A stretch of 64,000 nt of DNA from Candidatus Altimarinota bacterium (GCA_041909865.1 JAYRRZ010000060.1:2928-66927); one strand, 5' to 3'; numbered from the stretch's first letter, positions 6,556 through 26,738 are shown. Numbers and translations are program-made. The notes: a model not told the origin generated them from the sequence alone.

Positions 6556-7231
6556 CCCTTGCTAAAGCACCGATACTTACTCCAACAATGTCGCCTTCCT
6601 TGACCATTTTCCAGATTATCTCGCCAGTCTCCGTTTCAGGAAAAGTCATCCAAGCTAACCAAGTTCCTTTTTTAATCTCGCGCCCATCATCGGTAGTAAA
6701 TGTAGCAGGGGATATAAAAGACTGTTCAACCTTTGCGTCTTCTGTCATCATACGGTGAAAAAGATTAGCCTTCATACAATGCAAGTTGAAATTTGCACAT
6801 GCCTTCTCCACTTCCTCAGCAGAATATGTGTCTCCGTGCAAATCTACAACATCCGGTTCTAGGACTACAAACATAGCCCTCCGTTGCTCAACGTCCAACG
6901 CCTTAGTCACTTCCACTGTAGGCGCTACGTCCGTGTTTGTATCTCCAAATGCCTTGAACAGCCAATCTTTAAAGCCGTCTACAATTCCATCCAATTTGCT
7001 TTTAGCCACTGTTGCACTCCCTCCAACACCAACGCCAACAGCGGGCATCCCTTGCCCATCTGTGTCGTAAGCTCTAACACGTTGCGTTGTTTTCTTGCGC
7101 TTCTTCTTGACAGCATCCATTCCCATTTGAAGGTCCATTGTTGTCAATGGCTTTCCAGAGGCTTTGTTTACAGCTTGTTCAAAAACTTCCCGTTCTTCTT
7201 GAGAAAGGGATTCAACAATTTTAAATGTCAT
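6539..7231 (-). CDS. prohead serine protease, XkdF-like
   Basis: FVVLEPDVVDLHGDTYSAEEVEKACANFN resembles the XkdF-like phage protease core; directly after the portal gene. Confidence 0.65.
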   Translation of the reverse strand: MTFKIVESLSQEEREVFEQAVNKASGKPLTTMDLQMGMDAVKKKRKKTTQRVRAYDTDGQGMPAVGVGVGGSATVAKSKLDGIVDGFKDWLFKAFGDTNTDVAPTVEVTKALDVEQRRAMFVVLEPDVVDLHGDTYSAEEVEKACANFNLHCMKANLFHRMMTEDAKVEQSFISPATFTTDDGREIKKGTWLAWMTFPETETGEIIWKMVKEGDIVGVSIGALARVENLE

Positions 7232-7670
7232 CCTGTATTCTCCGAATTAAGGGAAGCTGTATCTGTTCCAGCTACGCTGTTTGAAGTGCCGTAAATGCCC
7301 CCCGTATCGGTCGAGAAAGATTTACCAGATTTAGTTTGATTTCCATCTTCAGCACCAGTGAGCTTTTTCACTTCCTCAAACGTGGCTTCAGGGTCAAACC
7401 TGTGTGGCAAATCCAAGACATCAGCAATGCGATTAACATTATCGGCAGTTTTGGCAATCATGCCAACAGCAGCAATCCGCTGAATAGCCTTACTGAATGC
7501 TTCAAGATCAGTTTCATCCAAATCGCCATAAACGAATTTCGGATAATCTGTTTCATCCCATCCGTTACGTTCAAACAGAGAAGGAATCAGGTCTTGATTA
7601 AGGACATCAGCAATTTCCATTAGACGTGCTTCGCACGCCATAGACAGGAGATTTGATTTTGAATCGGCTA
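7228..7670 (-). CDS. portal protein, exon 2
   Basis: reading frame continues exon 1 after removal of 7671-8206: ...GSYSL|ADSKSNLLSMACEARLMEIAD...; spliced product 499 aa. Confidence 0.75.
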
Positions 7671-8206
7671 CATTTATGTTCAAGGGCACTCGCTAGATGC
7701 CCTCCGCTTTATTCAAGCTGCTTTAAGTTTCCTTAAAGATCAGACTATATCACGCTCTTCTTGAGAGCCATACCATTTCCACTCGCTTGAGTGTACTTCC
7801 CGAAGGAATAGTCGTTGCACGGTCTAGTTAAAACACCCATATCAAAAACTGTAATCGCAAGTTATATGATGATAACCATTACGTCTTTGAATCGTTTTGA
7901 TGATACCTCTTGTCAATTTCTTACAAGTGGCTATCTTTAATATTTTTGAAGGTGTGAGTCCGTCCTCAAGACACCTACACACCCATCTCGCAGTTTCATC
8001 TGAGATAGATCGTCTACTGCAACTTCATAGGTTTTAACTAGCTTCGCTCAGGATTTCCCAATTCTTAATATTGTTACTATACCAAGCTGATTAGACTTGC
8101 CACTGAAATGTCACCACTTCAGTTTAGTAATTAAGACTCTAAGGGGTTTCCCTGAATTAGATATGTTTTTCCGTTTGTAATCACTTACAAAGGTCGCTAA
8201 CTTTTA
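7671..8206 (-). mobile_element. group I intron (ORF-less, 536 nt) in portal gene
   Basis: exon 1 ends in U (UCGU|UAAAAGUUAGCGA gives a P1 with G.U), intron ends in G (..AACAUAAAUG|); shares core blocks AAUUCAGGGAAAC, AUCCUGAGCNAAGC and about 130 nt of 3' sequence with the TerL intron. Confidence 0.8.
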
Positions 8207-9263
8207 ACGAATAACTGCCTACTTGATCTTGACCTAAACGCAAAATGTCGCTCAAAAGAGCGGTCAAGATTTTATTGTCGTAACGAGTGATTGCTTCTTT
8301 AATATGTTGAGCGCCACTATTGGGGACAGACAACAAACTAAACTTGAACAGAGGTTGCTTAGATTCAGGATCATACATCAACGGGGTGATTAGACCGGCT
8401 TGTTCGTTATTGTGCATATTCCGAATAATGTTCTGGTAATACGCAAACACACGCTTGTCATCGTCACTACCGTTTGGGTCCATGTACTTTGGGTGCAATT
8501 CCAAATGAGGGACACCAGACATATTCCGAGAATAGCCAATAGCTTCAATTTCTTCTAGTGCTACACGAACCTTCCACGGGCCGAAAACTGAAAGCAACGG
8601 AGAACGGCCCTCTGGATTGTCCTTATAAGCATCCGTTCTGAACAGCATGAAATTTTCACGAGGGATTGTGAGAGGTTGTTGTCCCCAATATGCGTCTGTG
8701 TAACGCATCTGGTCATTCATCAAACCAAGGGATTGTTTTACAGCAACCAAATCACGTCCATCGGGAGCATAAAGCCAACGATAAACCGTATCCTGAGAGC
8801 GGATAGGGAGCTTGCGCAGCCCCACCAACCCATCATTATACTTACTACCATTTCGCTTCCAGCGACGGCGATATACCTTTTCGTGAATACTAAATCCATA
8901 TGTGAATACAGAACATACTTCTTTCAAAAAATGAAACCAGCTATGTTCCATGTCGTGCATACATTCTTCTACATACTTGGCACGAGTCTTTTGTTTTTCT
9001 GTAGCTTGGGGAGGAGGCTCAACACTCCATTTCACCTTGCTAATCATCAATTCAATTGCTTTCAATGCCGCAGCAATTGTTGGATCGTGAGCCATTTCCT
9101 TGAAGGTTTTAATACTCTGAGGCCAACGCAAATCGCGTCTGGCCTCTTCGTAAATAATACCAGCACTCACTTTCAAGCCAGTGTAACCAACTTCAGTGAG
9201 AGACATTCTCGGAATAACGCTCCCATCCGATGACAAATGATCGTTTGGTACGTCTGTGGGCAT
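8207..9263 (-). CDS. portal protein, exon 1
   Basis: 352 codons + 1 nt; SD AGGAGAGG upstream of the ATG at 9263; follows TerL; the unspliced frame runs only 8 further codons into the intron (VSDLCK + stop). Confidence 0.75.
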
Positions 9264-9274: not shown

Positions 9275-9946
9275 CTAAAATGTGCTTCCTACCGCGTAAG
9301 CGGATTGGTTATGGCTAAAATCAAATGTGCTTCCTACGGAAAGGTCAGGAGGAGCAAATGTGGGGATTTTGATGGATGAAGCCAACATCATAAACGCATC
9401 ACCCGATGCGTCCACTTGATCGTCTTTGTTTTTTCTGCTTCCATCAAATATTTCTAGTTCATGGAAATAGGCTTCATTCCATTCACCTTTTACAATTTTT
9501 ACACTTCCACTTTCGCTCGCCGCACAGAACGGGGCAAACCGTTGAACCTTTGATTTAGAGGCTTGCTTTGATTTAGCATAAAAGCCCCTCTCAGCGAGGT
9601 CACGGATTAGTGTTGAAGCATATTGCTTTCCGCTTGCTCCCGGATCACAAGGGACAACAATTAAGGTGTCGCTACCGTCCTGCTGAGCTACCTCGCACAT
9701 TCGTTCAAATACTTCACCATGCCGTGCCCGAAATCTCACTACGTCTTCAACATAATAGTTTCCATACTTATCTTTAGACATTAGCACACCAGCAGTCCAG
9801 TCGGGATTTGGAGAAAGCTCAGAGGGGAGTGTTCCACTAATATCCCAAGCTCTCACTTTCTTTTCGACAGCAAGAGGCGGAAGGTCAACTACTTCACACC
9901 ATTCCTTCTTCCAATATCCGGATGATTCCTCACTTACATTCCAGTT
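9275..9946 (-). CDS. terL: terminase large subunit, exon 2 (nuclease domain)
   Basis: frame open from 9946 (NWNVSEESSGYWKKEW..); joins exon 1 to give LLYG|NW, the conserved terminase motif; VVPCDPGASGK and DDQVDASGDAF are nuclease-domain acidic motifs. Confidence 0.85.
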   Translation of the reverse strand, partial: NWNVSEESSGYWKKEWCEVVDLPPLAVEKKVRAWDISGTLPSELSPNPDWTAGVLMSKDKYGNYYVEDVVRFRARHGEVFERMCEVAQQDGSDTLIVVPCDPGASGKQYASTLIRDLAERGFYAKSKQASKSKVQRFAPFCAASESGSVKIVKGEWNEAYFHELEIFDGSRKNKDDQVDASGDAFMMLASSIKIPTFAPPDLSVGSTFDFSHNQSAYAVGSTF

Positions 9947-10997
9947 CGTTTATGTTCAGGGGCATTCGCTAAATGCCCCCCGCTTTATTCAAGCTGCTAT
10001 ATGTTTCCATATAGACCAGACTATATCATCACCTCTTTAAGAAGAGGGCTGTGCGCTTCCACTACCAATAGCTTGTAGTGTACTCCCTTTAGGGATAGTC
10101 GTTGCACTTTCATTATAACTTTTAAAATTGTAAGAGGCGGAAATAGAAGTGTAAAACTTTCTATTCCTTATATTTCCTACAACCTTTCTATCAACTTCCA
10201 GTTCTTTTGAGATTTCTAAAACACCCTTGCCATTTTCAAGGAGTTCACAAATCTTAATAACTGTTTCAGGAGATGTCATTTCCTTTTTTCTCAGTTTAGA
10301 AAAATCATAACTTGTAGAAATATGTAACCATTGTGGCTTCTGGTTATCTTTTAAATGCTGGATAAACCTGCGATCAAATCCAGTCATCCTAGATACATCG
10401 CAAGCTCTATATCCCTCTGAAAGCATTTGACAGATTTTATGTACATCATCTTCAGTTATGGTTTTGTACCCTACAGGTACTTTCCAATCATGACATATTT
10501 CGTCTTCAGTTGGAATCTTATTTAATTCATGTAAAAATGTAGGCTTTCTGAGTCCATTTTCTATGGCGTGTATAGTGTTCTCTTGTGGTGTAGCCCATTC
10601 CAGATTTTCAACAGAGTTATTTAACTTGTTACCATCTTTATGATTAACTTGTTTCTTACCTTCAGGATTATCAATAAAAACTGTAGCCATAATTCTATGC
10701 AATTTACAGTTTTGATGTACTTTTCCGTGATCGTCTGTCAACGCGAAAATACGATATCCCTCTCTACATACCCATCCGCTAAGAAACCTATTACTCTTTA
10801 AGCTAAAGAGTTTTCCACAATTAGTTACACAATATCCACTAAACCCAATTTCACCTAAATTTTTCAAAATGACATCTCCTACTTATTTCGGAAGTTATAA
10901 TGCTTAGCTCAGGATTGTCTTTGCCATTACGCAGTAAGAGTTTCCCTGAATTCACACAGTTTTCTCACCATCATCGCTAATGGTGGCGGCTAAATTA
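9947..10997 (-). mobile_element. group I intron (1051 nt) with HNH homing endonuclease ORF, in terL
   Basis: 5' splice site CGGU|UAAUUUAGCCG (P1 with G.U), in-frame TAA immediately after the junction, 3' end ..CAUAAACG|AAC; block AGACAAUCCUGAGCUAAGC resembles the T4 td intron AGACAAUCCCGUGCUAAAU as I recall it. Confidence 0.85.
10037..10867 (-). CDS. intron-encoded HNH (HNH_3 / I-HmuI-like) homing endonuclease
   Basis: 276 aa; NHKDGNKLNNSVENLEWATPQENTIHA motif; TTG start with AGGAG 8 nt upstream; lies entirely inside the terL intron. Confidence 0.85.
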   Translation of the reverse strand: MKNLGEIGFSGYCVTNCGKLFSLKSNRFLSGWVCREGYRIFALTDDHGKVHQNCKLHRIMATVFIDNPEGKKQVNHKDGNKLNNSVENLEWATPQENTIHAIENGLRKPTFLHELNKIPTEDEICHDWKVPVGYKTITEDDVHKICQMLSEGYRACDVSRMTGFDRRFIQHLKDNQKPQWLHISTSYDFSKLRKKEMTSPETVIKICELLENGKGVLEISKELEVDRKVVGNIRNRKFYTSISASYNFKSYNESATTIPKGSTLQAIGSGSAQPSS

Positions 10998-12758
10998 ACC
11001 GTAGAGCAGTCTTGCTTTTTCAACGCGCCCAAGAGACTCCAACCAACCAATATATTCTGGTTGAGCTTCCATGAGAACAGGGTTATCCCGGCAAGTAGCA
11101 TTGATGAATGTAAAACTCATCACTACTTCGCGCTTTACGTTGAATTTCTCCATTAACTCTTCTGGAGTATCAGCATAGTGGTTTGTGTTGTCTCTGCGAA
11201 GAAAATAACGTACAACCCCACACCTTTCCTCAATGGGATACCCCTCTTCATCGAGCCACCATGAAATCCAGTTTTTAACCCAAGACTTTGAGTCAGGGTT
11301 CATGGTGCAGCGAACGCGAGGTTTTACTTCAGGGCAAGATGGATTACGCAAGCGGGAAAGAATATAAAGAAACATCTCTTCTTCATATTGAGCGCACTCG
11401 TCAATAAGGCACTCACTGATTTCCATCCCTTGCCAGTTGTCTTTATCCTTCAAATGCTCGAAGTGTCTCAAGTAAACTTCAGCACCAGAGGAGAAACAAA
11501 ACTTATTCTCCATTGACTTAAATCTTACTTTAGGGTCCACCTTTTTAAACATATCCAACGCCTTATCAAGTAGGCCACCCGGACCTTTCAATTGCGTTGT
11601 AGTTCTTCGTGTAAATACACCTCTAAAGTTTTTATGTCTAATGTGAGGCAGAAAGTCCATTACACCAAGGTAGCTTTTACCAGAATTGCCAGTAATCACT
11701 ACCTTGTTATTTCTTCGTGTAACAAACGCCCCAGTAGGGACAGTGAAGCAATATTTGAATCCGTCTTTACTTTTTACAAACTCAAAAACTGCTTTGTCAT
11801 TTATGTTTTCTAGTGTACTGGCAATATTACGGCTTGGTGTTACGTTGTACTCAATACTCTTACGAATATATTCATTATCTTTGTAACCAAGACCTCTACG
11901 ATCATTTATACCAATGCTGGCATGAATATTTTGAATATTATAGAGGTACTGAATACAATCTGCATCTTCTTTAATTGTCGTAGAAAATCTGCCTAGATGA
12001 TTACGACCTTTTGTGAATGATCCATCCCAATACATGATTTCATCGGTGATGTGCTTTGCATCTTCTTTAGAGCAAAGCATCCAGTCAGAAAATCTCTTTG
12101 AGCACCAAGGAGCGTACAAAGTAAAGACAACATAATCGTCTACAGAATTGGTTTCGGTATGAGGATAATTTAATTCCTTCAGAATCCAACGGAGACGCTC
12201 AATCTTACGTTGCTTTTTTAACCGCACAACATAACGTGAAGTTGCAGCAGAGGCGATATGTCCATCACATTTCAAGGCTACAGCGAGCTTGATTTCAAAC
12301 TCACTAAGACCTAGGCGGTTACCATCCTCATATTCATAGACTTTTCTAAAAAACCCTTTATGACCATTTGCAGAAGAATTGTGTTTTTGCATGAACTCCA
12401 TAAAAGGAACTTTGAACATAGTGCCTTTACGGTTTTCATAAACAATGTTATGATCTTCTGAAACCATGTGGTCCAGTTTGGTGTTTTTGATATGATAGAA
12501 GCCGTCACATTCTTTTTTTATGTAAGCAATCGGTGTAACCAGTGTTGCTTTTTTAGTGGAAAGATCAAACTGCATCACCATATCACCGGGGACATATTCA
12601 GAAATCTTTTTCCACCCGTATTGACTAAGGAACTCTGTATCCGCATCAACACATCCGGCTGCGCCGCCGAAAAATACTACATCTGCTGTGGATGTAATAA
12701 ACATTTGTTGTTTGCGAGACTTCGGTCCAATAATCTCTTGTTCTTTTTTCTGCCGCAT
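10998..12758 (-). CDS. terL: terminase large subunit, exon 1 (ATPase domain, contains intein)
   Basis: Walker A split as FFGGAAG|C..intein..N|SGKSY; Walker B CLIDECAQ; ends ..ARLLYG at the splice site. Confidence 0.85.
11685..12653 (-). mobile_element. intein (323 aa) with LAGLIDADG endonuclease, in the TerL P-loop
   Basis: starts CVDADTEFL (Cys1), ends VVITGN followed by Ser+1; internal LAVALKCDGH and DEIMYWDGS = two LAGLIDADG motifs; removal restores GGAAGSGKS. Confidence 0.8.
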
Positions 12759-12909
12759 ATTAAAATTCTCTCCTCTGTCATGGATGCGTCAAAAGATAAG
12801 ATGTAGGAAACCCCCTGACGAGGAGGGCTTATCGAGCGGCCACTCTATCCTACAAATTTGTGCAAATAAGAAATGGAACGGTTTGCTAAAACCGTCCCCT
12901 ACACTTTTA

Positions 12910-12972: not shown

Positions 12973-13452
12973 TCAAGGCTTGTTCTTTTGTAAATAGTCA
13001 TCCCATCCCGGAGGGGAGGGCGCTTTTATAAACGCCACCCTGAACACCTTTCCAAACAGTTTTAACCAGTAGAGGTAGTACCAACTGTCTCCTTTTTGAG
13101 TGAGATACCACTTATAAGGGGTAGAAATAGGGGGTAGGACATCTTCCGTGAGATTGTCCAGCACCCACCATTCGTTGCCATCGCGCACGCACAGGACGCA
13201 ATGGCCCTCGCCGGATGGTGTGGCGACGGTGCAGAGGCCGGTGTCAAACCCTGCGGCGGACAGTCTGGTCTGTTTTCCTAGCGCGATGGCTTTGCAGTCG
13301 CCCGTCCCGCCGATGTCGGCAGCCTCCCAGCGGTCAGGACTGGCGCGGTAGCCGATGCTGTTGTTGAGCGTCGTGTTGACGCTATTAAGAAGCGTATTCA
13401 CGAATCCACGCATCCCGAGCCGCGACGGTTGCTGCTTCGTCCCAGTCATCAC
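12973..13452 (-). CDS. BTLCP / LapG-like transglutaminase-fold cysteine protease
   Basis: DRWEAADIGGTGDCKAIALGK ... EGHCVLCV ... VLDN reproduces the Cys-His-Asp arrangement and spacing of bacterial transglutaminase-like cysteine proteinases; start may instead be Met14 (13413); no obvious signal peptide. Confidence 0.6.
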   Translation of the reverse strand: MMTGTKQQPSRLGMRGFVNTLLNSVNTTLNNSIGYRASPDRWEAADIGGTGDCKAIALGKQTRLSAAGFDTGLCTVATPSGEGHCVLCVRDGNEWWVLDNLTEDVLPPISTPYKWYLTQKGDSWYYLYWLKLFGKVFRVAFIKAPSPPGWDDYLQKNKP

Positions 13453-13543
13453 CGGCTTCGTTCAGAACTTGAAACACTTCGCCAGTTTCCATCGACAGGT
13501 GGGCAATTCCCGGAATGTACTCAATACCACGAACGTCTTGCAT
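13385..13543 (-). CDS. small hypothetical protein (52 aa, acidic)
   Basis: not in ORF track (<60 aa); ATG at 13543 preceded by TAAGGAGA; GC-rich coding-like composition; overlaps the start of the BTLCP ORF. Confidence 0.45.
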   Translation of the reverse strand: MQDVRGIEYIPGIAHLSMETGEVFQVLNEAGDDWDEAATVAARDAWIREYAS

Positions 13544-13553: not shown

Positions 13554-14810
13554 TTAGTTTGCCATCAGGATGCTGCCGCCGGTCGTGCGAGCCGCGTTGC
13601 TGCCGCCGTTGACGATGGCGTAGCGGTAGTAGCGCCACTTCGGGCTGACCACGGCTTCCGCAACATAGCCGCCCCCGGAAATGTTTGTCGCCGTGATGGA
13701 CTGGATAACCCGGAACGTCGAGTTGTCGCGGCTGGCCTGAATCTGAAGCGTAAACGCCACATCTTGCTCGGCCATCACGCGGAACTCCTTCGCGTTTGTC
13801 GATGCACTTGAAAACGCAGAACCTGACGATGTTGCCGTAACATCGCGGGCTGTGGATGTAAATGTGCTGTTAGCGGTAAGTGCCGCTGACGTGTCGTCAT
13901 ACCAGATGCCGGGGGCAAATACGCAACCAGCTCGCGATGTGCTTTGAGTCAATGCAGCAGTCGTAAATGCCGTTACCTGCGCGGCGGAATAGGCGAGCAA
14001 AACTCCGGCAGTACCCGAACCATATGTCGTGCATTTGACTTGAATATGGGTGACTCCCGGAGGGATGTCAAAAACGATCGGTTGGTTTGCTGTGGCAACA
14101 TTGGGCAAATAACCGCCAGTCGATAGGTTTTTCAAATAGCCGGGCGCGATCCACGTCGCGGCATTATCAAACGATATTTGCAACGTAGCGGTTTGCGAAA
14201 ATGTCCCGTAAATATAAAACGTACAGGAACGCGCCCAACCGGGCACAGCAAGTCCTGCACCGCCAGCAGGAAACGTGTCGTTTAGCGCGGCTAAAGCACT
14301 GGCGTTAGATGCTGAATACCCGTCCGGAGTACGGAAATACTGAATGCCCGTGTTATCCGTCAGCAATGTCCGCTTCAGCCCGCCCCCATCAACCCCACTC
14401 ACCCGCACCGCTTGATTTGTCGGTGCTACGCCGTCAGCGGACACGCCGCCGACATAGAACACCCCGTCGCTCGCCCCGGTGACGCTGAGCGAGTTTGCCG
14501 CCGTCTTGGTTCCCTTGAGCGACAGCCAGAAATCCCGCATCCAACGCAAGAACCCGTTCGTCGTGCTCGCCCCGGTGTCGCCAGCAGCCGCAGCAGATGC
14601 GCCGCCGATGCTCGCAAGTTCCGTCACGATGTCGGTGTTTGTCTTGCTCCCGCTCCCCCGCAACGCATCGCGCAATGCAGATAGCGCGATGTCCAAGTTG
14701 TCCGTTTTCGCCTTGATGAGTTCCTGCGTCGCCTCTCCAGCGACTTCGCTTCCGTCCGTGCGGGTAACAGGTATCGTGCGTCCGGTCATGTCATGCCTCC
14801 ACGGCAACAA
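13554..14810 (-). CDS. tail fibre / receptor-binding protein (two beta-sandwich-like repeats)
   Basis: 418 aa, Ala/Gly/Ser/Thr-rich, two similar C-terminal modules (..TATLQISFDNAATW.. and ..FTLQIQASRDNSTF..); high-GC; follows another fibre gene with a 20-nt overlap. Confidence 0.55.
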   Translation of the reverse strand: MLPWRHDMTGRTIPVTRTDGSEVAGEATQELIKAKTDNLDIALSALRDALRGSGSKTNTDIVTELASIGGASAAAAGDTGASTTNGFLRWMRDFWLSLKGTKTAANSLSVTGASDGVFYVGGVSADGVAPTNQAVRVSGVDGGGLKRTLLTDNTGIQYFRTPDGYSASNASALAALNDTFPAGGAGLAVPGWARSCTFYIYGTFSQTATLQISFDNAATWIAPGYLKNLSTGGYLPNVATANQPIVFDIPPGVTHIQVKCTTYGSGTAGVLLAYSAAQVTAFTTAALTQSTSRAGCVFAPGIWYDDTSAALTANSTFTSTARDVTATSSGSAFSSASTNAKEFRVMAEQDVAFTLQIQASRDNSTFRVIQSITATNISGGGYVAEAVVSPKWRYYRYAIVNGGSNAARTTGGSILMAN

Positions 14811-16017
14811 GCCACATCAGGGCCGCGCCGTCATATAGATATTGAGTTCGTTGGTTGGCGTTGGTCTCGTCCGCCGTGACGACATAAAGCCGTGGCTCAG
14901 CGAGGCCGGTCGTGTTGATGTCGGCGAAATGCGTGACGGTGACGGCCTCCAGCGAGGACGTGCCGGGATCGGCAGGGGTATCAACAATGATGAGGTTGGT
15001 CTTGCCGCTGATGAGCTTGACGTACTGCCCGGCCCGCGTGGTCTTGCCGTGGAAATAGCCCCCGGCGCTGACCTCGTACCAGTCGTTGTCGAGAGCGCCA
15101 ACCGGCAGGGTAGCGTTTGTTATCGTCCCAAAACCACTCCGCCCGCCTGTAGTATCTGAAAGGTTAAAGCTGACCGTCGAGGCAGCAAAAACCACCGTGC
15201 TGGAGGCGGATTGCGTCAACACCATCAACTTGATCGTGTCCCCCGGCGGGAATGATCCGACATCCAGCGTAAACGGGCCGACCGTGGTCGAGCCGACTTG
15301 TAGCGTGATGTCGTTTGTTGTTGGATCAAGGCGCAAGTAAGACACATCACCGGCAACCACCGCCCCCGCGTTTCCGCCGGTAATGGTCCCGCTGTTGTAG
15401 ATAACGAGGCCGGCGTACGGATACGCGAGCACGCCGGAGGCTTCGACGGCAATTGCTGCATATGTGGGGTTTGCTGGCGTATTGCCTGCGATAAAATCCC
15501 TGACATCCGAAATGGTTGCCGACGAGTTGCACAGAACGAGATAGTGCAAGTTGACGGTATCTCCCGGCGTGTACGCTGGCATCGGCATGGATGCCTGCAT
15601 GACATTTGTTCCGATGGTTAGCGCCGATGTTTCAACACCTGCTATGTACGGTATGCCGACGCCGGGAATTGTGCCGTCAGGCGTCATGGTCGTGGGCGTG
15701 TACGTTGCCGCTTGGGACGCTGATGGCGCGGCAGGAACAAACACGCCGGAGGACATGTCCCACTCTCCCTTATATTGCCCAGAATAAGCAATATCTACAG
15801 AAACATCTCCAGAAGAATCGGTTCCACTAATACCATCTCCAGTAAAATTCAAAGATTTAATATTAGCGGGAGAAGATAGATTAACCCCATTTTCTTTAAC
15901 TTGGATCAAACTTCCATCTTGACCGGCATCCCCTTTTGCTCCACTAGCAAATGTACTCGCTTGCGGGATTTCAAGCGTAATTTCTTGAGAAACAATATTC
16001 AGAATTGTCTTAGCCAT
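14791..16017 (-). CDS. tail fibre protein, mosaic (low-GC N-terminal anchor + high-GC distal part)
   Basis: 408 aa; N-terminus with a collagen-like GAKGDAGQDG triplet run; composition switches from AT-rich to GC-rich near 15770. Confidence 0.6.
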   Translation of the reverse strand: MAKTILNIVSQEITLEIPQASTFASGAKGDAGQDGSLIQVKENGVNLSSPANIKSLNFTGDGISGTDSSGDVSVDIAYSGQYKGEWDMSSGVFVPAAPSASQAATYTPTTMTPDGTIPGVGIPYIAGVETSALTIGTNVMQASMPMPAYTPGDTVNLHYLVLCNSSATISDVRDFIAGNTPANPTYAAIAVEASGVLAYPYAGLVIYNSGTITGGNAGAVVAGDVSYLRLDPTTNDITLQVGSTTVGPFTLDVGSFPPGDTIKLMVLTQSASSTVVFAASTVSFNLSDTTGGRSGFGTITNATLPVGALDNDWYEVSAGGYFHGKTTRAGQYVKLISGKTNLIIVDTPADPGTSSLEAVTVTHFADINTTGLAEPRLYVVTADETNANQRTQYLYDGAALMWLVAVEA

Positions 16018-16028: not shown

Positions 16029-16364
16029 TTATGTCTGTGTAACATCCTGCACAACTTTAATTTTAATTGTCTCTGTACTCTGTGTCACCCCATTGATAAT
16101 ATACTCAATATCCCAAATCAACGTGGCAATCGGCCAATCAGAGGTGGAGGCTTGCAGAGTGAATTTACCTTTTCCAGTGGTGGATTGACTTGCAGCTTTT
16201 GTCACAGTGAGAGAAGACACCAACTCCCCTTGCATATCTCTCACTTGGGAATTGATTGTATAATCTGTCAAATTTGTTGCATTTGTTCCATCAGCACAAT
16301 ATGTTGCTTCAACATAGAATGTATCTCCACGCTTTTGCGTGACTACTTCATAATCGCAAGACAT
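16029..16364 (-). CDS. hypothetical virion-associated protein
   Basis: 111 aa, SD GGAG upstream, immediately upstream of the fibre genes. Confidence 0.5.
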   Translation of the reverse strand: MSCDYEVVTQKRGDTFYVEATYCADGTNATNLTDYTINSQVRDMQGELVSSLTVTKAASQSTTGKGKFTLQASTSDWPIATLIWDIEYIINGVTQSTETIKIKVVQDVTQT

Positions 16365-18331: not shown

Positions 18332-18643
18332 TTAATAGCTAGGAAGTTGTCCTCGCCTGTTAAGTTCCATTCTTGTAACAATTCTGGCCTCTTGGAATAT
18401 TAGCATACTCTGTTCCTCTCCAAGAGATTCTTCTAGCAGCAACAATACCTTCTCCTGAATATTTTCACTTGCTTCAGAATACATCATTCCAACATAATTT
18501 TCCATTACAGTGTTGAGGAATGTATCTAAATTTTCAGATTTAGTTGTATCTTTAATCAATTTTCCATTAGAATAATCAATATTCTTACTGATGTCATCCC
18601 ACAAACCAGACATTTCTTTTGTAATTTTATCAAACTCATTCAT
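18332..18643 (-). CDS. hypothetical protein
   Basis: start at MNEFDK (ATG 18643) overlapping the upstream stop. Confidence 0.5.
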   Translation of the reverse strand: MNEFDKITKEMSGLWDDISKNIDYSNGKLIKDTTKSENLDTFLNTVMENYVGMMYSEASENIQEKVLLLLEESLGEEQSMLIFQEARIVTRMELNRRGQLPSY

Positions 18644-18908
18644 TTGACATCTTCCTGTACGTGTCAACAATTTGTTCCAATTGTACACTGTAATTTATTA
18701 GCTGTTCTATCGTACCACGATAAAGTTTAACAACTTCGCCATCCGGCGTACTTGGACCAATTTGCTTCACTATCAATTCCGGCCTACTTACAGCAGGAGG
18801 AGAGGGGATTTTAGCTGCTACATATTGCGGCTTGCAAAAGAATCCCCCACAACCAGTGAGAATTGTAGTTCCGCAGCAAAACAAAACAACAAATTTAAAA
18901 TTTCGCAC
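18636..18908 (-). CDS. o-spanin (Rz1-like outer-membrane lipoprotein)
   Basis: 90 aa; signal + lipobox LTGC, Pro-rich mature part; lies after the i-spanin candidate. Confidence 0.6.
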   Translation of the reverse strand: MRNFKFVVLFCCGTTILTGCGGFFCKPQYVAAKIPSPPAVSRPELIVKQIGPSTPDGEVVKLYRGTIEQLINYSVQLEQIVDTYRKMSNE

Positions 18909-19056: not shown

Positions 19057-19398
19057 TCACTTTACATCAAAGCTGATATTACTAGCCTCATCCCGCAAAT
19101 ATTGCACGCTGGAAGGACAATCCTTTGGCTGTAAGCCAGAAAGAATCTTCCTCACCCTTTCTTCCCCTTGCTGATGCACAACAATAAGCTGTTTTGATAA
19201 TTCTCCAACAGCCTCTTGTTGCTTGACATACTCCCTGTGCCGTTCATCAAGGAGGGATTCATATCCCTGATTCTGCACAGACAACAACTTGTTGTCAAGT
19301 TCTAAATCCTTAACGTGTACATTCAAATACACAATCCAAGCTAGGAACACAGCAATACATCCGTATTGAATTAAACGTGTTATTGGAATTCCGTACAT
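19057..19398 (-). CDS. i-spanin (Rz-like)
   Basis: 113 aa; N-terminal TM helix IQYGCIAVFLAWIVYL followed by a coiled-coil periplasmic domain. Confidence 0.6.
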   Translation of the reverse strand: MYGIPITRLIQYGCIAVFLAWIVYLNVHVKDLELDNKLLSVQNQGYESLLDERHREYVKQQEAVGELSKQLIVVHQQGEERVRKILSGLQPKDCPSSVQYLRDEASNISFDVK

Positions 19399-20742: not shown

Positions 20743-21978
20743 ATGGCAGAATGTATTGAAGTTCTTGACAAGATTTGTGGTAGCGGAAAGAGTACAGAGT
20801 TGTTCAAGTGGATGAATAGCAATCCAAATGAAAGATGGATGTACATCACTCCACTCTTGTCCGAGATTGATGAGCGACTTCCCAAAGAAGTTCCAGATTT
20901 GGAGTTCTTTACTCCTCAAAGCTGGTACTACGGGAAAGAAGATAAGATGACCAAATCTGAGCATCTTTTAACTCTTTTGAATAGGGGTGTCAACGTTGCT
21001 TTCACTCATTCTTTGTTTAGATTACTAACTGAAGCTCACATGGAGGCTGTTAAGAAATGGGGATACACTCTTGTTATCGACGAAGAATGCAGTCTTATTG
21101 AATCGGCATCTAATGAATATACAAAAGGAGATATTGACCATCTTTTGAAATCGGGTTGCATTGAGATACAAGAAAACAATCTAGGAATGGTTGTTTGGAA
21201 AGACAACAGTATCACTCCAGATGGGGATTGGAAGTATAAGGAAATGAAGATGCTTGCCGATCTTCAAATGCTCTACTGCGCTAAACGAGATCATGGGATG
21301 ATTACTGTACATCTTCCGATTGCTCTCGTTGGTTGTGCAAAGCGAGTGATACTCTCTTCCTACCTGTTTGATGGTAGCACCATGTCCGCATTCGTACAAA
21401 TGAAGGGGATGATTGTTACACCTTTCCTAGATGTTGTCGTGAATGATTATGGAAAGAAGGAACGGTTGAAAGACCTGATAGAGATTGTTCGGCCACGCAA
21501 TGAAAAAGTGATAGACGAGATTGGTCTGTCTCACACACAGTCTAAATCTTTGTCTGAGAAGAATGTAGAAATCTTGCAAAAAGCGATGTATGCTGTTGCT
21601 CACTCCTGTAAAGCAAAAGCTAAAGATATCATGTGGACTTCTCGCAAGGACTTAGCTTTTCACGAGAAAGGTTTTCCAAAACTGAAGCCTCGGTGTATGC
21701 CTGCCGATGAATGTTTTGTTTCTTGCAATGCCAGAGCAACGAATGACTACGCTCACAAGTGGATGCTACTGCATGTCTATGACCGACACCCACATCAAGC
21801 GTTGAAGGCTTATCTGGAAGACTATGGTTTTCCTATTGACAAAGATCGCTATGCTTTGGCGGAAATGATTCAGTGGGTGTTTCGCAGTAGGGTTAGAAAG
21901 GGGGAAAAGATCAAGCTGTCAATCTTTTCGAAACGTATGCGTACAATTTTCTTGAATTGGTTGTACGAAACCCCTTGA
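20743..21978 (+). CDS. P-loop NTPase of unknown family
   Basis: 411 aa; Walker A CGSGKST, Walker B TLVIDEE; first gene of the rightward early operon. Confidence 0.6.
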   Translation: MAECIEVLDKICGSGKSTELFKWMNSNPNERWMYITPLLSEIDERLPKEVPDLEFFTPQSWYYGKEDKMTKSEHLLTLLNRGVNVAFTHSLFRLLTEAHMEAVKKWGYTLVIDEECSLIESASNEYTKGDIDHLLKSGCIEIQENNLGMVVWKDNSITPDGDWKYKEMKMLADLQMLYCAKRDHGMITVHLPIALVGCAKRVILSSYLFDGSTMSAFVQMKGMIVTPFLDVVVNDYGKKERLKDLIEIVRPRNEKVIDEIGLSHTQSKSLSEKNVEILQKAMYAVAHSCKAKAKDIMWTSRKDLAFHEKGFPKLKPRCMPADECFVSCNARATNDYAHKWMLLHVYDRHPHQALKAYLEDYGFPIDKDRYALAEMIQWVFRSRVRKGEKIKLSIFSKRMRTIFLNWLYETP

Positions 21979-22003
21979 CACCCCTCCCAAAAAGGAGTAC
22001 ATT
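21975..22003 (+). promoter_or_regulatory. promoter, TTGACACCCCTC class
   Basis: TTGACA 21975-21980 (contains the TGA stop of the preceding gene), 17 nt, TACATT 21998-22003. Confidence 0.5.
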
Positions 22004-22101
22004 GCAAAAACTAAGCCCTCTACACACATTGTTCACCCCTCAAATGTGATACTGGATGAAGTGGATTATGAGGAACAATGTCCGTTTTGAGGAGAAGGAA
22101 A

Positions 22102-22293
22102 ATGACCAAGCCAACAATTAACTCCATCTACAAAGAATGTAACATTCGTGTGTATAATGGAAGCTGGTATGTACAAAAGCATGTGTTGGATAGTGTGCTT
22201 GAGAAGGTGATTGAGAAGGCGTACAATGCTGGATATGTAGACGCCGACAAGGCTAATTGTGAACAGTTTGTAAACTTTGGAGAAGAGAAATGA
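22102..22293 (+). CDS. hypothetical protein
   Basis: start at MTKPT with SD AGGAG; ATGA overlap with next ORF. Confidence 0.5.
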   Translation: MTKPTINSIYKECNIRVYNGSWYVQKHVLDSVLEKVIEKAYNAGYVDADKANCEQFVNFGEEK

Positions 22294-22463
22294 ACCTCCG
22301 CAAACGATTGAAACAACGTGCTGTGAAGATTAAGTGTGACAGGGAAAAATGGAAAGAGATGTTGACAATCAATCGTGAAACTCATTCTTTCATTCGTGTT
22401 GATTGGAATTCAATTCATTATTGCTGGCATATTGCCGATTGCTATTGGAGCAAACCAAAATGA
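22290..22463 (+). CDS. hypothetical basic protein (57 aa)
   Basis: not in ORF track; ATGA overlaps at both ends. Confidence 0.4.
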   Translation: MNLRKRLKQRAVKIKCDREKWKEMLTINRETHSFIRVDWNSIHYCWHIADCYWSKPK

Positions 22464-22663
22464 CCCTCTACGCCTCTTGTGGACATGCCATTAAAGACGG
22501 AGAACACGATATTGTGTGCTCCATGAAAGCCCTCTCTCGTGAAGGGGATAGGTGCATTCATATTGGCTCTTTGTGTGAAGATTGTTATTCCATCTCTCTT
22601 GAGCTTGGCGAAATCCTTCGGACGGAAGGAGAAGAGATGAGTTGGTTGAGAGGGAAAGAATAA
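22460..22663 (+). CDS. small Cys-rich protein
   Basis: start at MTLYASCGH; TAATG overlap with the dam start. Confidence 0.45.
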   Translation: MTLYASCGHAIKDGEHDIVCSMKALSREGDRCIHIGSLCEDCYSISLELGEILRTEGEEMSWLRGKE

Positions 22664-23364
22664 TGCGGTATTTTGGTGGAAAGCAACGAATCAGTAAACC
22701 ATTGGCAGCATTCCTGAACAGTCAATTGAAACCTGAGCAGGCGTTCTATGACATGTTCTGTGGAAGCTGTAATGTTATCAGCAAGATTGATCCTAACCGA
22801 GACAGGATTGCTAATGATTTGCACAAAGAATTGATTGCAATGTGGCGATATGTACAACAAGGTGGGGAGTTGCCAGATGAAATCAGTGAAGAACAATATC
22901 AAGAGATTAAAGAGAGCGGTGAAGATTGGTTAAAAGGTTTTGTTGGATTTGGTTGCAGCTTTGCTGGTAAGTATTGGGGAGGATATGCTCGTGGTGGGGA
23001 TGGGCGTGACTATTGCCAGAATGCTAAAAATAGTACATTAAAGAAAATGAAATCCTTGCAAGATGTAATATTTACTAATCTTAATTATGAGGATTTGCAC
23101 ATCTCTCATAAGAGAGCAATGGTGTATTGTGATATCCCGTATAAAGACTCTGTTGGGTATAGTGTTGGAAATTTTGACCATGAAAAGTTTTATAAATGGG
23201 CGTCTTGGTGGTGGGGTCAAGGAAAACATGTAATTGTTAGTGAGTACAAGCACAATGTCCCTGAAGGATGGAAAATTGTGTGGGAATACGAAAGTAAGAA
23301 AGATATTCGTGATAAGAGTGGTATTCAGCAGCCTACTGTTGAAATTCTTATGACACCGTGTTGA
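22663..23364 (+). CDS. dam: DNA adenine methyltransferase, Dam (D12 class)
   Basis: MRYFGGKQRISKPL N-terminus, FCGSCNV (motif I), CDIPY (DPPY-type catalytic motif). Confidence 0.8.
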   Translation: MRYFGGKQRISKPLAAFLNSQLKPEQAFYDMFCGSCNVISKIDPNRDRIANDLHKELIAMWRYVQQGGELPDEISEEQYQEIKESGEDWLKGFVGFGCSFAGKYWGGYARGGDGRDYCQNAKNSTLKKMKSLQDVIFTNLNYEDLHISHKRAMVYCDIPYKDSVGYSVGNFDHEKFYKWASWWWGQGKHVIVSEYKHNVPEGWKIVWEYESKKDIRDKSGIQQPTVEILMTPC

Positions 23365-23389
23365 CACACCCTCTGTTGTTTGATATAGT
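23361..23389 (+). promoter_or_regulatory. promoter, TTGACAC class
   Basis: TTGACA 23361-23366 (embeds the dam TGA stop), 17 nt, TATAGT 23384-23389. Confidence 0.6.
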
Positions 23390-23421
23390 GCATGAAACTT
23401 AAATAGCTTTGGAACACAAAC

Positions 23422-23946
23422 ATGAACATCTTCGTCACCAATGAATGCCCTGTGCAAGCTGCTATTGAGCACTGTAACGTCCACCTTGTCAAAATGGCAA
23501 CTGAAAGCTGTCAAATTTTGTCAACTGTACATTACAATTTAACTGGAAAAGTTGTAGGTATGCAACCCACTCACCACTCGCACCCTTGTACAGTGTGGGC
23601 ATCTAAATGTTCAGGTAATTATTTATGGCTCTATGAGCACTATATTGAGTTATGTCACGAATACTATCGACGTTATGGAAAAGTTCATAATGCTTATCTT
23701 CATTCCGAGAAGTTAGTGCTTCCACCACAGAATATTCGAGCACATTCCCGCACATTCTTCGCCAAAGCCATGCCGGATGAGTTTAAAGCTATTCCAAATG
23801 CCGTGTTAGCCTATCAAGCCTATCTCAATCACAAGTTTGTTGGGTGGCGTACTCGCACAGACAAAAAGCAAATGCCGGTTGAGTGGACCAAGCGTAATGT
23901 GCCAAGTTGGGTGAATGTTGACAATATTTTTGGAGAATTGAAATGA
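23422..23946 (+). CDS. conserved phage protein, possibly pyrimidine-dimer DNA glycosylase-like
   Basis: MNIFVTNECPVQAAIEHCNVHLVKMATESCQILSTVH resembles an N-terminal signature often annotated this way; recollection only. Confidence 0.4.
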   Translation: MNIFVTNECPVQAAIEHCNVHLVKMATESCQILSTVHYNLTGKVVGMQPTHHSHPCTVWASKCSGNYLWLYEHYIELCHEYYRRYGKVHNAYLHSEKLVLPPQNIRAHSRTFFAKAMPDEFKAIPNAVLAYQAYLNHKFVGWRTRTDKKQMPVEWTKRNVPSWVNVDNIFGELK

Positions 23947-24131
23947 AGCTGTTCTTCCACACCCCTCCCTCTGGTGGTTGGACTGTTGTAAAAGATCAAG
24001 ATGGAAAACTTGTCTATGAAGGGCATAGCCGGTGTAGTGATCTTATTGAAGAAATTCTTTTCTTCGCGGGTATTCAATTTGAACGTATTGAATGGGAAAG
24101 TGACGAGTCTTTTGAAGAGGAGTTTTGCTAA
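23943..24131 (+). CDS. hypothetical protein
   Basis: 62 aa, ATGA overlap upstream. Confidence 0.45.
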   Translation: MKLFFHTPPSGGWTVVKDQDGKLVYEGHSRCSDLIEEILFFAGIQFERIEWESDESFEEEFC

Positions 24132-24389
24132 ATGACTCGCGAAGAATTTTATGAGAAGTACGGGGATGTGGTTGTAAAGTTTATAAGCTATTACAAGTAC
24201 ACGTTTACATATGGAGCTTCCTTTGCAGATGGTAAGCGCCTTCTCTGCCATTACGGTGGAAACTCAGACGAAATCTATCGTTTTGAAATGGTAGACGGAG
24301 AAGAAATCCTGTTGAAAAACCTTGAGCCATACTCTGGTGAGGTATATGATAGCAACCACAAATTGTTGGATGAATTTTATGACTACTAG
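24132..24389 (+). CDS. hypothetical protein
   Basis: 85 aa, abuts previous stop. Confidence 0.5.
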   Translation: MTREEFYEKYGDVVVKFISYYKYTFTYGASFADGKRLLCHYGGNSDEIYRFEMVDGEEILLKNLEPYSGEVYDSNHKLLDEFYDY

Positions 24390-24597
24390 CCTAATCAAAC
24401 TCACACCCCTTGAAACAAATTGTTTCTACATTTGGCGTGTCTTTGCGCCAGCTATCATTGGAAAGATATGGCGTGATAGTTTTGTTACAGACAACAAGTG
24501 GGAATATCAAGGATGGGGATGGACAAGTGTTACGCTGGAAGAGATGAAAGAAATTGTAACCAAGTTGGAGGAGATGAATAATGCCGGGGAAGAATAG
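24379..24597 (+). CDS. hypothetical protein
   Basis: start at MTTSLIK, 11-nt overlap. Confidence 0.45.
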   Translation: MTTSLIKLTPLETNCFYIWRVFAPAIIGKIWRDSFVTDNKWEYQGWGWTSVTLEEMKEIVTKLEEMNNAGEE

Positions 24598-24805
24598 GCC
24601 ATCCAAACTCATTCGCAGGAAAGCATATGAGGACGTATACTCTCGGAAAGGGATGCCGCCTCGTCCAGAGGACGTAGCTTTCTATGCTGATGCGAATCAT
24701 CAAGAGTTGTACGTCAAAGTGTACACACAAGTGATGAATATGTATTGGCATTTTGAGAGTGTGATTGAAGATATGAACATGATTTATGGAGAAAGTAATG
24801 CCTGA
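24581..24805 (+). CDS. hypothetical protein
   Basis: 74 aa. Confidence 0.45.
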   Translation: MPGKNRPSKLIRRKAYEDVYSRKGMPPRPEDVAFYADANHQELYVKVYTQVMNMYWHFESVIEDMNMIYGESNA

Positions 24806-25460
24806 TTTCAAGAATGAGCAGTTTTGGTTAATGCAAGGGGACTGTCTGGAACGGATGAAAGAAATTCCGGATGGCAGCGTGGATATGGTGTTGTCTGACA
24901 TACCCTACGGAGAGGTAAATCAAAAGAGCGGTGGACTTAGAAAACTAGACCGAGAAAAAGCAGATGAATGTAATATAAATCTTGAGACACTGATTCAAGA
25001 GTATTATAGAGTTTGTAACGGCAGTTTTTATGTCTTTTGTGGAACACAGCAAATTTCAGAAATTATTACACACTTTAAAGATTTCGGTTTGACTACAAGA
25101 CTGTGCGCTTGGGAAAAATCAAACCCTAGCCCCATGAATGGTGATAAAATGTGGTTGAGCGGACTGGAGTTTTGTGTCTTCGCAAGAAAGCCTAAATCAA
25201 TCTTCAACGAGCATTGTCAAAAAGGTTTGTGGAAGAACCCTGTAGGAAGATCGAAAATACACCCTACAGAAAAGCCAGCGGCCCTAATGCAAAGGCTTAT
25301 TTTAGCAAGCTCGAATAGTGGAGATACGGTCCTTGATTGCACAATGGGTAGCGGCAGTACAGGTGTGGCTTGCTTGAATACAGGTCGCAAATTTATCGGT
25401 ATTGAACTTGACGCAACTTATTTTGATATAGCTAAAAACAGGATTCTTGAAAATGTATAA
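24798..25460 (+). CDS. DNA methyltransferase, beta-class N6A/N4C (DPPY-first order)
   Basis: SDIPYGE catalytic motif near the N-terminus, TVLDCTMGSGSTGVA AdoMet motif near the C-terminus, HPTEKP. Confidence 0.8.
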   Translation: MPDFKNEQFWLMQGDCLERMKEIPDGSVDMVLSDIPYGEVNQKSGGLRKLDREKADECNINLETLIQEYYRVCNGSFYVFCGTQQISEIITHFKDFGLTTRLCAWEKSNPSPMNGDKMWLSGLEFCVFARKPKSIFNEHCQKGLWKNPVGRSKIHPTEKPAALMQRLILASSNSGDTVLDCTMGSGSTGVACLNTGRKFIGIELDATYFDIAKNRILENV

Positions 25461-25767
25461 TTCAATCTACAAAACATACATTTGTTCAATGTCGTATATT
25501 GACAAGGAATATTTGATCGAATATGATTTTTACAAGGGGTATCCACAGACACAATGGGAGCCTGAGGAGCCACCAGAAGTAGTCCCAAAATGCACAATTG
25601 ATGCAAGCGGACGCAAGATTGGATTGGAACATTACGATATGGAGTTTGTCCGAGAAGCTGAACAAGTGTGTTGGGAGGATGCTTGGTTGCGAGTGGAAAA
25701 GCAGAGGGATTTGGATGATGAGAAAAGGATTGAGGCGTTTCAAGAGAAACTTAATAGGGGTTGGTGA
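25447..25767 (+). CDS. hypothetical protein
   Basis: 106 aa; start uncertain (25447 or 25453). Confidence 0.45.
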   Translation: MKMYNSIYKTYICSMSYIDKEYLIEYDFYKGYPQTQWEPEEPPEVVPKCTIDASGRKIGLEHYDMEFVREAEQVCWEDAWLRVEKQRDLDDEKRIEAFQEKLNRGW

Positions 25768-25834
25768 TGTTCTCGTTTCTCTCGAACATTTGGTGTTTCA
25801 GCCTCTGGCTTCACACCTGCGATGGAGATTATAG

Positions 25835-26164
25835 ATGACTAAAACCATTCACGATGCAATGGTGGATAACATCTCTTTGCTTCGCAAAGCAAGAGATAGT
25901 ATTATGCGTAAGCGAGTGGGGAATAAGGATGTGAAAGCCATTGTTGATGGTGTAATCTCTTCCCAACAATATTCTCGTCTTGCAGAGGAATATTTTAACG
26001 AGTATGTTTCTTGTTCAAATATTTCTTTGTACAAATATGATTTGGTTGTGGACCTGATTGCCTTGGATTACATGCTGAGTGAGATTCAAGATTATGATGT
26101 GTTCCATGAAAATGTGATGAAACAAATTAAGAGTAAATTTAATTTACTACCTTTGGAGGAATAA
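25835..26164 (+). CDS. hypothetical protein
   Basis: 109 aa. Confidence 0.5.
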   Translation: MTKTIHDAMVDNISLLRKARDSIMRKRVGNKDVKAIVDGVISSQQYSRLAEEYFNEYVSCSNISLYKYDLVVDLIALDYMLSEIQDYDVFHENVMKQIKSKFNLLPLEE

Positions 26165-26168
26165 AACA

Positions 26169-26686: not shown

Positions 26687-26690
26687 TTAA

Positions 26691-26738
26691 ATCCAGAGGA
26701 GGAGTTGCCGTTGGGTGATTTCTTCTCTGGATTTTTTT
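26691..26738 (+). terminator. rho-independent terminator
   Basis: ATCCAGAG ... CTCTGGAT (8 bp stem, long loop) followed by TTTTTTT. Confidence 0.6.

Follow-up and report, generated by a model that had tools for sequence, protein, structure and literature searches.

What does a protease of the LapG type do at the end of a phage tail-fibre cassette? The question is raised by a gene in a 64,000-nucleotide (nt) stretch of DNA recorded under Candidatus Altimarinota bacterium (GCA_041909865.1, JAYRRZ010000060.1:2928-66927; hereafter the window), which belongs to a novel myovirus-type genome of ~80 kb from activated sludge or wastewater. [quoted passage not shown] According to our comparisons, the gene does encode a BTLCP, which has departed from LapG in its calcium site and its likely location, and which stays at the end of the cassette when the receptor-binding genes before it are replaced. 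We tentatively favour a role as an accessory enzyme of the adsorption module.

A minimal BTLCP domain with an intact catalytic triad

The interval 12973-13452 is exactly one open reading frame (ORF), as the earlier note had it. It is read from the minus strand, the plus-strand frame being littered with stop codons, and the 159 amino acids (aa) read from its GTG are probably more than the real product. Its codons 1-17 overlap, in a different frame, the conserved C-terminus of the preceding gene, orf52 (13385-13543), and in most homologues the start corresponds to codon 18 (MNxLLSSVN). For these two reasons the true start is probably GTG 13401 (gene at 12973-13401, 142 aa) or ATG 13413 (146 aa). 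The 142-aa start lies 14-16 nt upstream of the orf52 stop, which thus falls inside the BTLCP coding sequence and suggests translational coupling. Residue numbers below refer to the 159-aa ORF.

The family assignment was borne out by both profile and structure comparisons. The protein matches the Pfam family PF06035 (Peptidase_C93) with 55.3 bits against a gathering score of 27 (E=8.6e-15), aa 18-121 aligning with positions 45-148 of the 162 in the model, and the same family is present in all close homologues; PHROGs and NCBIfam gave no match for the protein. An AlphaFold2 model made from 20 sequences (predicted local distance difference test score 88, predicted template modelling score 0.80) was compared with the PDB by Foldseek, and each of its six best matches is a LapG chain of Legionella or Pseudomonas (E 5e-7 to 1.6e-5, TMq 0.58-0.65). 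A sequence profile compared with PDB sequences recovered these LapG entries too, with E=9e-15 and 1.8e-11. The three strings that had first drawn attention were located in the ORF, with DRWEAADIGGTGDCKAIALGK occupying aa 40-60, EGHCVLCV aa 82-89 and WVLDN aa 96-100. They hold Cys53 (codon 13294-13296), His84 (13201-13203) and Asp99 (13156-13158) within GDC, GH and LDN motifs, in the order Cys-His-Asp. This triad is invariant in the close clade, in a 20-sequence alignment with cellular BTLCPs and in 146 of the 146 nearest representatives, which were taken from an exhaustive search of 1.84 billion proteins. In addition, the ratio of nonsynonymous to synonymous substitution rates is 0.07-0.23 (unsaturated pairs only). 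The profile match, the fold, the invariant triad and this ratio together point to a minimal, catalytically intact BTLCP domain of ~142 aa under purifying selection, and we regard membership of the BTLCP/Peptidase C93 family as nearly certain. Neither outcome that the earlier note had named as refuting it, the lack of a significant profile or structure match to BTLCP/LapG and catalytic residues that vary among homologues, was observed.

The close clade is tiny, essentially one 50%-identity cluster among the 1.84 billion representatives. Scanning IMG/VR with a clade profile found nothing, and megablast and tblastn searches of GenBank phages with the gene, the cassette and the flanks gave no match. 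The sole match in a scan of genome collections is a 3.2-kb contig of a Moraxellaceae metagenome-assembled genome (MAG), which is weak host evidence. RNA was seen in three metatranscriptome-type runs only, as short fragments of related variants at depth 2-5, for which DNA carry-over is possible. Among the relatives, P0083 looks like a frameshifted read-through of a 274-aa gene, of a type found in the related locus L001, into the BTLCP. Three further apparent fusions (P0085, P0110 and P0124) turned out to be BTLCPs of cellular origin, either extended or in tandem.

Departures from LapG and HvyA

LapG (Pseudomonas fluorescens and Legionella pneumophila; PDB 4U65, 4FGO) and DvhG are BTLCP proteases of the periplasm that set giant adhesins free. 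The window protein shares with them the PF06035 domain, the transglutaminase-like fold and the triad motifs, at ~20% identity to the solved structures. Cellular BTLCPs in our alignment carry a signal peptide and an N-terminal extension of 70-100 aa, whereas the window clade begins at the catalytic core. Its N-terminus is not hydrophobic (the maximum 15-residue Kyte-Doolittle mean is 0.48 over the first 40 aa), in agreement with the earlier observation that there is no signal peptide.

In LapG and DvhG, the residues that bind calcium lie on either side of the nucleophile (D-C-E-D), and the DvhG variant D316A/E318A has no activity (PMC13090378); P. fluorescens LapG also uses the loop residue D111 (PMC4359373). 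Where LapG has D-C-E-D, the window protein has D52-C53-K54-A55 (Lys54 codon 13291-13293), and a six-residue 'NADKFG' loop, aligned with the D111 region of P. fluorescens LapG, is deleted. Among the 146 relatives, the residue after the cysteine is Glu in 78% and Lys in 14%, the next one is Asp in 87%, and the full D-C-K-A combination occurs in six. More distant members with the same C-terminal lobe (P0016, P0084) keep D-C-E-D, so the change to D-C-K-A arose within the lineage. The LapG-type calcium site is largely dismantled, and the lysine next to the nucleophile probably stands in for calcium.

The surroundings also differ from those of LapG. GGDEF, EAL, HAMP, type 1 secretion and LapD-like families are absent from the 74 scanned window ORFs, and the first four of these are absent from the related loci as well; a substrate encoded by the host is possible. 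LapA-type cleavage sites are periplasmic, and they would be out of reach of a protein without a signal. The window protein thus appears not to be a LapG orthologue, would have no Sec route to the periplasm, and its role is probably not that of LapG.

That a BTLCP can be tied biologically to the cell surface and to the adsorption of phages is seen in HvyA of Caulobacter crescentus, a periplasmic BTLCP that prevents capsulation and confers sensitivity to phage phiCr30, its catalytic residues being required (PMC4241560). The BTLCP domain is common to HvyA and the window protein. HvyA, however, has a Sec signal, conserved calcium residues, a length of 272 aa and a chromosomal position in a capsule export locus, none of which holds for the window protein.

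A true mimic of LapG or HvyA would have to reach the periplasm, for instance by way of lesions made by the holin or ejected along with the DNA, and there cleave a LapA-type adhesin or block capsule export. Such a role would agree with the family and fold, which are those of LapG, and with the control that HvyA shows a BTLCP can exert over capsule and phage sensitivity (PMC4241560). The phage BTLCPs of CcrColossus, Bajun and L338C, which carry signal or lipoprotein sequences, probably act in this way. The window clade, in contrast, has no signal peptide and lacks the calcium ligands that LapG and DvhG require, and the window offers no LapD-like or type 1 secretion context. Among all the readings considered here, this one is the least likely for the window clade and we hold it to be highly improbable; for the same reasons, together with the periplasmic location of the LapA sites, a LapG-like function is not supported.

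The gene closes an exchangeable fibre-type cassette

On the minus strand, the genes follow each other in the order i-spanin, o-spanin, small genes, p127, p111, p408, p418, orf52, BTLCP, hairpin, terminase, portal, protease, capsid and neck. The hairpin (12875-12898, minus strand) is terminator-like, with a 10-bp stem and a T-rich tail ~75 nt past the BTLCP stop, and it is predicted to close the transcription unit of the fibre cassette ahead of the terminase gene. The genes just before the BTLCP gene are all on the same strand. The small gene orf52 (13385-13543; 52 aa, acidic, FQVLNEAGDDWDEAATVAARDAW) has a good ribosome-binding site (AAGGAG) and a strongly conserved core (FQVLNE..DWDEAATVAARDAW), without any PHROG or Pfam family. 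It is preceded by p418 (13554-14810; probable start ATG 14789, 411 aa), which is of a fibre-like or receptor-binding type by its shaft repeats, fold and context, and by p408 (14791-16017), the first fibre-like gene of the GC-rich cassette, with a short collagen-like GAKGDAGQDG near its N-terminus. Neither p418 nor p408 has a match in Pfam, PHROGs or the GenBank phages. Just upstream of the cassette, p111 (16029-16364) encodes a conserved small protein and has normal GC; in locus L008 a homologue is found upstream of the p418 homologue, at a distance of two genes.

The p418 protein consists of N-terminal helices, a conserved anchor, a shaft-repeat region and two C2-like beta-sandwich domains. 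These C-terminal domains resemble XepA/YomS and several phage tail-tip or baseplate proteins, and shaft repeats of the 'LPLPSGAATSANQTTAN' type occur throughout the family in differing numbers. In p418 (aa 60-110) and the homologues P0037-P0060, the motif 'IDGGIGGASAAAAGDTGASTTNGFLRW' shows high conservation. It is preceded by 'LPLPSGAATSANQTTANSSLSSI'-type repeats in varying number, none in the window and several in P0037, P0041 and P0057, and is precisely deleted in P0038, P0048 and P0054. In L007, a homologue of p418 ends a Mu-like module of baseplate and fibre genes, and in L008 another stands directly before P2-like baseplate genes. Furthermore, the first ~50 aa are kept (88% identity) in L038, where the remainder has been swapped. 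From this context, the shaft repeats, the retained N-terminus and the beta-sandwich resemblance, we accept p418 as probably of fibre or receptor-binding type, with the caveat given below. The orf52 gene follows every p418 homologue with a readable 3' side, including those in loci without BTLCP, the exception being the rearranged cassette of L038. It is probably a fibre partner or chaperone, because it co-varies with the C-terminal domain of p418.

The BTLCP gene is the last gene of this co-directional cassette (p408, p418, orf52, BTLCP) in at least five phage backbones. What comes after it differs: an HNH gene and then the terminase in L001-L003, L025 and L026, a DksA/TraR-type gene followed by opposite-strand genes in L004 and L005, opposite-strand genes including Endonuclease_NS in L006, and yet other opposite-strand genes in L011 (where the BTLCP is 40% identical) and in L012. 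In the MAG contig L015 the gene likewise comes last after p418-like and orf52-like genes, and in L038 it follows a different distal module. Two contigs of the window's own backbone reach far enough downstream, and both keep it. The earlier placement of the gene directly downstream of the fibre genes thus holds as a linkage, and in several unrelated backbones, with the correction that orf52 intervenes after p418.

The high-GC patch that had been noticed around the gene is also real, with 54-58% GC at 13-16 kb against ~41% in the rest of the window. At the third codon position, the GC content (GC3) of the cassette's three large genes lies at 0.59-0.67 and that of orf52 at 0.47, against 0.26-0.42 in neighbouring genes. 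In every BTLCP locus measured (L001-L006, L011, L012), the cassette including the BTLCP gene is GC-rich (52-62%), the backbone having 38-47% in L001-L006 and 55-56% in L011 and L012. Across loci, the GC3 of the BTLCP gene is 0.54-0.67, and that of p408 and p418 in the window is 0.59-0.64. The homologues of p418 without BTLCP (L007, L008) sit in phages of 50-61% GC. This difference of the cassette persists at only 40-70% protein identity. Such a pattern suggests repeated transfer from phages of GC-richer hosts, and not one recent event.

Comparison with the close relative L001 separates the parts of the cassette. The backbone is 94-97.5% identical and the BTLCP gene 94.6% identical at the DNA level, but the body of p408, which is replaced between close relatives, and the N-terminal part of p418 have no DNA similarity, and the C-terminus of p418 together with orf52 is 84% identical. 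In addition, two extra genes are inserted in L001 exactly at the junction between orf52 and the BTLCP gene. Over seven loci, the Spearman rho is 0.69 for the divergence of orf52 against that of the p418 C-terminal domain, 0.15 for BTLCP against orf52 and 0.04 for BTLCP against p418, values that are only descriptive because the pairs are not independent. The BTLCP therefore seems to evolve independently of the variable fibre tip, the receptor-binding genes being swapped and the BTLCP staying in place. Exchange is also visible within the source sample. The assembly graph of the source run forks within BTLCP/orf52 (13148-13309) and within p418 (14427-14589), with minor cassette variants at depth 5.5 and 8.4 against ~30, and many related contigs end inside fibre genes. 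These forks and contig ends indicate that variants of the fibre cassette co-exist in one sample.

This evidence bears directly on the second proposal of the earlier note, in which the protein, acting as a cytoplasmic protease or transamidase, would trim, cross-link or release p418, p408 or orf52, perhaps through the N-terminal anchor of p418. The strict adjacency, the overlapping frame and the transcription unit shared with the fibre genes are what one would expect of a maturation or assembly factor. The absence of a signal peptide agrees with it, a dismantled calcium site would suit the low-calcium cytoplasm, and the ~50 N-terminal residues of p418 are retained (88% identity) despite replacement of the remainder. 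However, p418 and orf52 occur as a pair without an adjacent BTLCP in the Mu-like (L007) and P2-like (L008) tail modules, and the divergence of the BTLCP is uncoupled from that of both proteins. We considered cleavage of p418 at a LapG-like AAAG site in its linker (aa 74-77, the only AAAG within the cassette) and rejected it, as motif and BTLCP do not co-occur: the site is present in L007, which has no BTLCP, and absent from the BTLCP-linked P0048 and L011. Moreover, the signal-less BTLCPs of Xanthomonas phages adjoin an unrelated tailspike type, or none. As far as we are aware, phages are not known to have a fibre protease that acts in trans. Fibre maturation is weakened by the unpaired loci, the uncoupled divergence and the AAAG distribution, and we consider it rather improbable.

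Other phage BTLCPs

BTLCP was the auxiliary metabolic gene ('AMG') of highest frequency in single-virus genomes from rivers, and there were signs that it had passed from one viral cluster to another (PMC11283719). Phage proteins of the BTLCP fold are also present in BFVD. A tblastn search with the window protein misses the known phage BTLCPs. With a generic BTLCP query (P0030), annotated genes come up in phages of Caulobacter, Brevundimonas, Rhizobium, Xanthomonas, Erwinia and Vibrio. Those named here are from CcrColossus (gp037), CcrPW, Bajun, L338C, RHph_I4, PhiXhv-12, LucasX and Vibrio phage GR11A. In the literature we found no functional study of any phage BTLCP, and the earlier note was aware of no characterised phage LapG-like enzyme. 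Its claim to novelty has to be tempered because such genes are already on record (PMC11283719 and GenBank annotations).

These proteins are ~17-29% identical to the window protein over fold alignments and, unlike it, most keep D-C-E-D. The BTLCPs of the Caulobacter phages and of the Brevundimonas phage Bajun have lipoprotein signals and lie beside the portal gene, and that of Rhizobium phage L338C has a Sec signal; these signal-bearing proteins are plausible HvyA-like envelope modifiers. The BTLCPs of Xanthomonas and Vibrio phages are minimal and signal-less, as in the window. In the Xanthomonas jumbo phage PhiXhv-12, the gene order is two glycoside hydrolases, a small gene, Rz, Rz1, a tailspike-like protein (beta-helix, 794 aa), a 47-aa lipoprotein and, at the end of the unit, a signal-less BTLCP of 140 aa. 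PhiXhv-12 is an independent case of a minimal BTLCP after a receptor-binding gene. In LucasX, only the small lipoprotein and the BTLCP are present, with no fibre nearby. The 794-aa and 47-aa proteins were tried as relatives of p418 and orf52, respectively, and are unrelated to them.

As a separate observation, a proline-rich lipoprotein of 47-54 aa (…APPPGCV.LRK.GG.C) abuts the BTLCP start in both Xanthomonas phages (L022 4846-5411 in PhiXhv-12, L024 4804-5420 in LucasX). Lipoprotein and signal-less BTLCP form a conserved two-gene unit there.

Against this background, what is new in the window is a rare clade, signal-less and with a degenerate calcium site, that is tightly linked to a swappable fibre cassette.

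The same comparisons bring in two further explanations. One is that the protein is a cytoplasmic effector, a mobile 'moron' protease that would cleave a host cytoplasmic protein, for takeover, anti-defence or superinfection control, from a permissive slot at the operon end. Phage BTLCPs move between viral clusters that are not related to each other, in the manner of accessory genes (PMC11283719), and particles of extracellular contractile injection systems deliver a toxin of the transglutaminase-like Cys-His-Asp type (PMC11297309). The lost signal peptide and calcium site, the GC-rich and compositionally foreign DNA, and the two-gene unit of LucasX without a fibre nearby all fit an effector. 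In the window clade, however, the BTLCP stays with the fibre cassette while the downstream genes change, and the GC-richness extends to the whole cassette and not to the BTLCP alone. Genes for takeover or anti-defence are usually early, whereas the BTLCP gene is in a late-type unit. An effector is an unlikely explanation, ranking second after the adsorption-module role set out below and just before fibre maturation.

The other is a papain-like endolysin or a virion-associated peptidoglycan peptidase. An i-spanin/o-spanin pair lies 5.2-5.9 kb upstream of the BTLCP gene in the same orientation, and no holin, endolysin or conventional lysin domain was recognisable near these spanins or among the 74 other scanned window ORFs. 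The BTLCP is small, globular and signal-less, as many Gram-negative endolysins are, lysins with a transglutaminase fold exist (the pseudomurein endoisopeptidase of psiM2 is among the BFVD fold matches, E=0.026), and in PhiXhv-12 the BTLCP gene comes a few genes past the lysis genes. On the other hand, PhiXhv-12 and LucasX have separate glycoside or peptidoglycan hydrolases besides their BTLCP, there are no lysis genes nearby in L004-L006, L011 and L012, and the ~16 kb of the 80.4-kb contig outside the window could hold a lysin. The relative KoPa-4 has its endolysin gene after those of the main tail fibres; homologues of the KoPa-4 fibre, chaperone, endolysin and spanin proteins were found neither in the window nor in the related loci. 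The two characterised BTLCPs that we found, LapG and HvyA, both act in the periplasm, and the substrate of LapG is a protein adhesin. No lysin family of Pfam, PHROGs or NCBIfam matches the BTLCP protein. We consider a cell-wall peptidase unlikely, though conceivable given that the window shows no recognisable lysin.

A possible accessory enzyme of the adsorption module

The reading that we tentatively prefer, with somewhat less than even confidence, is that the BTLCP serves the adsorption module as an accessory enzyme, with a target that is independent of the fibre tip. Late in infection, the cytoplasm would produce the protein alongside the accessory fibre proteins, and it would work as a cysteine peptidase, possibly an isopeptidase or transamidase. 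Its target would be common to all fibre variants, because the BTLCP does not change with the receptor-binding parts, which are exchanged, and has an evolution of its own. It would leave the cell with the progeny, either bound to a conserved part of the fibre or free after lysis, and would then cleave a host surface protein, such as an adhesin, an S-layer or a pilus-type barrier, and so aid adsorption. Of this last step, cleavage of a host surface protein, we are much less confident and see it as possible at best. In its most specific form, the protein would be a virion-carried or lysis-released, calcium-independent 'protein depolymerase' mounted on interchangeable fibre modules and cutting a surface barrier made of protein (giant adhesin, S-layer or pilus) on the next host, the replacement of Glu by Lys giving a metal-free active form; we regard this as an unlikely idea.

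In its position, just downstream of receptor-binding genes and in the same transcription unit, the BTLCP gene resembles those of Tfa/gp38-type chaperones and of virion-borne depolymerases. Unlike Tfa/gp38, the protein has no PHROG or Pfam chaperone match and does not co-vary with the fibre tip, which orf52 does. Unlike the depolymerases, it would act on protein and not on polysaccharide.

Several points weigh against the role that we prefer. The presence of the protein in the virion, or its action outside the cell, is an indirect inference, and no docking domain is obvious in its sequence. An enzyme of the cytoplasm would account for the lost calcium site no less well than an extracellular enzyme. 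A related signal-less BTLCP occurs in Xanthomonas phage LucasX without a neighbouring receptor-binding gene, and the end of an operon is a classic slot for unrelated 'moron' genes. Finally, the identification of p418 as a fibre protein rests on context, shaft repeats and fold resemblance. XepA, which its beta-sandwiches resemble, is itself of unclear function (PMC6834076).

The surrounding phage genome

The capsid protein is ~50% identical to that of Limnohabitans phage DC31 (Pakpunavirus) and 46-48% identical to those of Curvibacter phage P26059A and of ~95-kb Pseudomonas myoviruses. No tRNA gene was found in the window. The leftward block of genes begins with the i-spanin (19057-19398, minus strand), which has an N-terminal transmembrane segment and a weak match to PHROG 214; beside it lies an o-spanin-like lipoprotein gene (18636-18908, minus strand) with an LTGC lipobox.

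Downstream of the BTLCP gene, the large terminase gene (9275-12758, minus strand) is interrupted twice, the terminase of L001 being one uninterrupted gene of 456 aa. The N-terminal ORF (587 aa) has an intein-like insert of ~320-350 aa ahead of Terminase_6N, which matches PHROGs annotated as PhoH-like and as ribonucleotide reductase. An HNH endonuclease ORF (10037-10867) splits the Terminase_6C part (9275-9856) from this N-terminal ORF, and group I intron matches flank the HNH ORF at 9997-10227 (E=2e-9) and 10872-10949, with 45 bits, just under the Rfam gathering score of 50. The Mu-type portal gene (7228-9263, minus strand) is likewise split, into ORFs of 360 aa and 153 aa, by a group I intron-like element without ORF (7721-8216; E=8e-9, 43.5 bits); at the site of this element, L003 has an HNH gene.

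The early and replication regions are at 20743-39098 and 41171-63742. They encode ArdA antirestriction, two DNA methyltransferase families (N6_N4_Mtase and D12 class), PhoH, a pyrimidine-dimer glycosylase, ThyX, a dUTPase, a family A DNA polymerase and a B12-type ribonucleotide reductase. One more intein splicing domain was detected there (E=1e-21, from a bulk scan in which the carrier ORF was not reported).

Significance

BTLCP genes are among the commonest 'auxiliary' genes of freshwater viromes, and the window clade is the clearest genomic clue so far to what they may do. The natural D-C-K-A variant offers a ready-made test of whether a lysine can replace a calcium ion. If the protein matures fibres or acts inside the cell, the LapG fold would gain a new activity. 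If it is instead the calcium-independent protein depolymerase outlined above, a phage would for the first time be seen to employ the LapG fold in adsorbing to cells or in penetrating biofilms. Cleavage of host surface proteins would add a protease class to an adsorption toolkit that otherwise consists mostly of polysaccharide depolymerases, and would bear on how phages penetrate biofilms.

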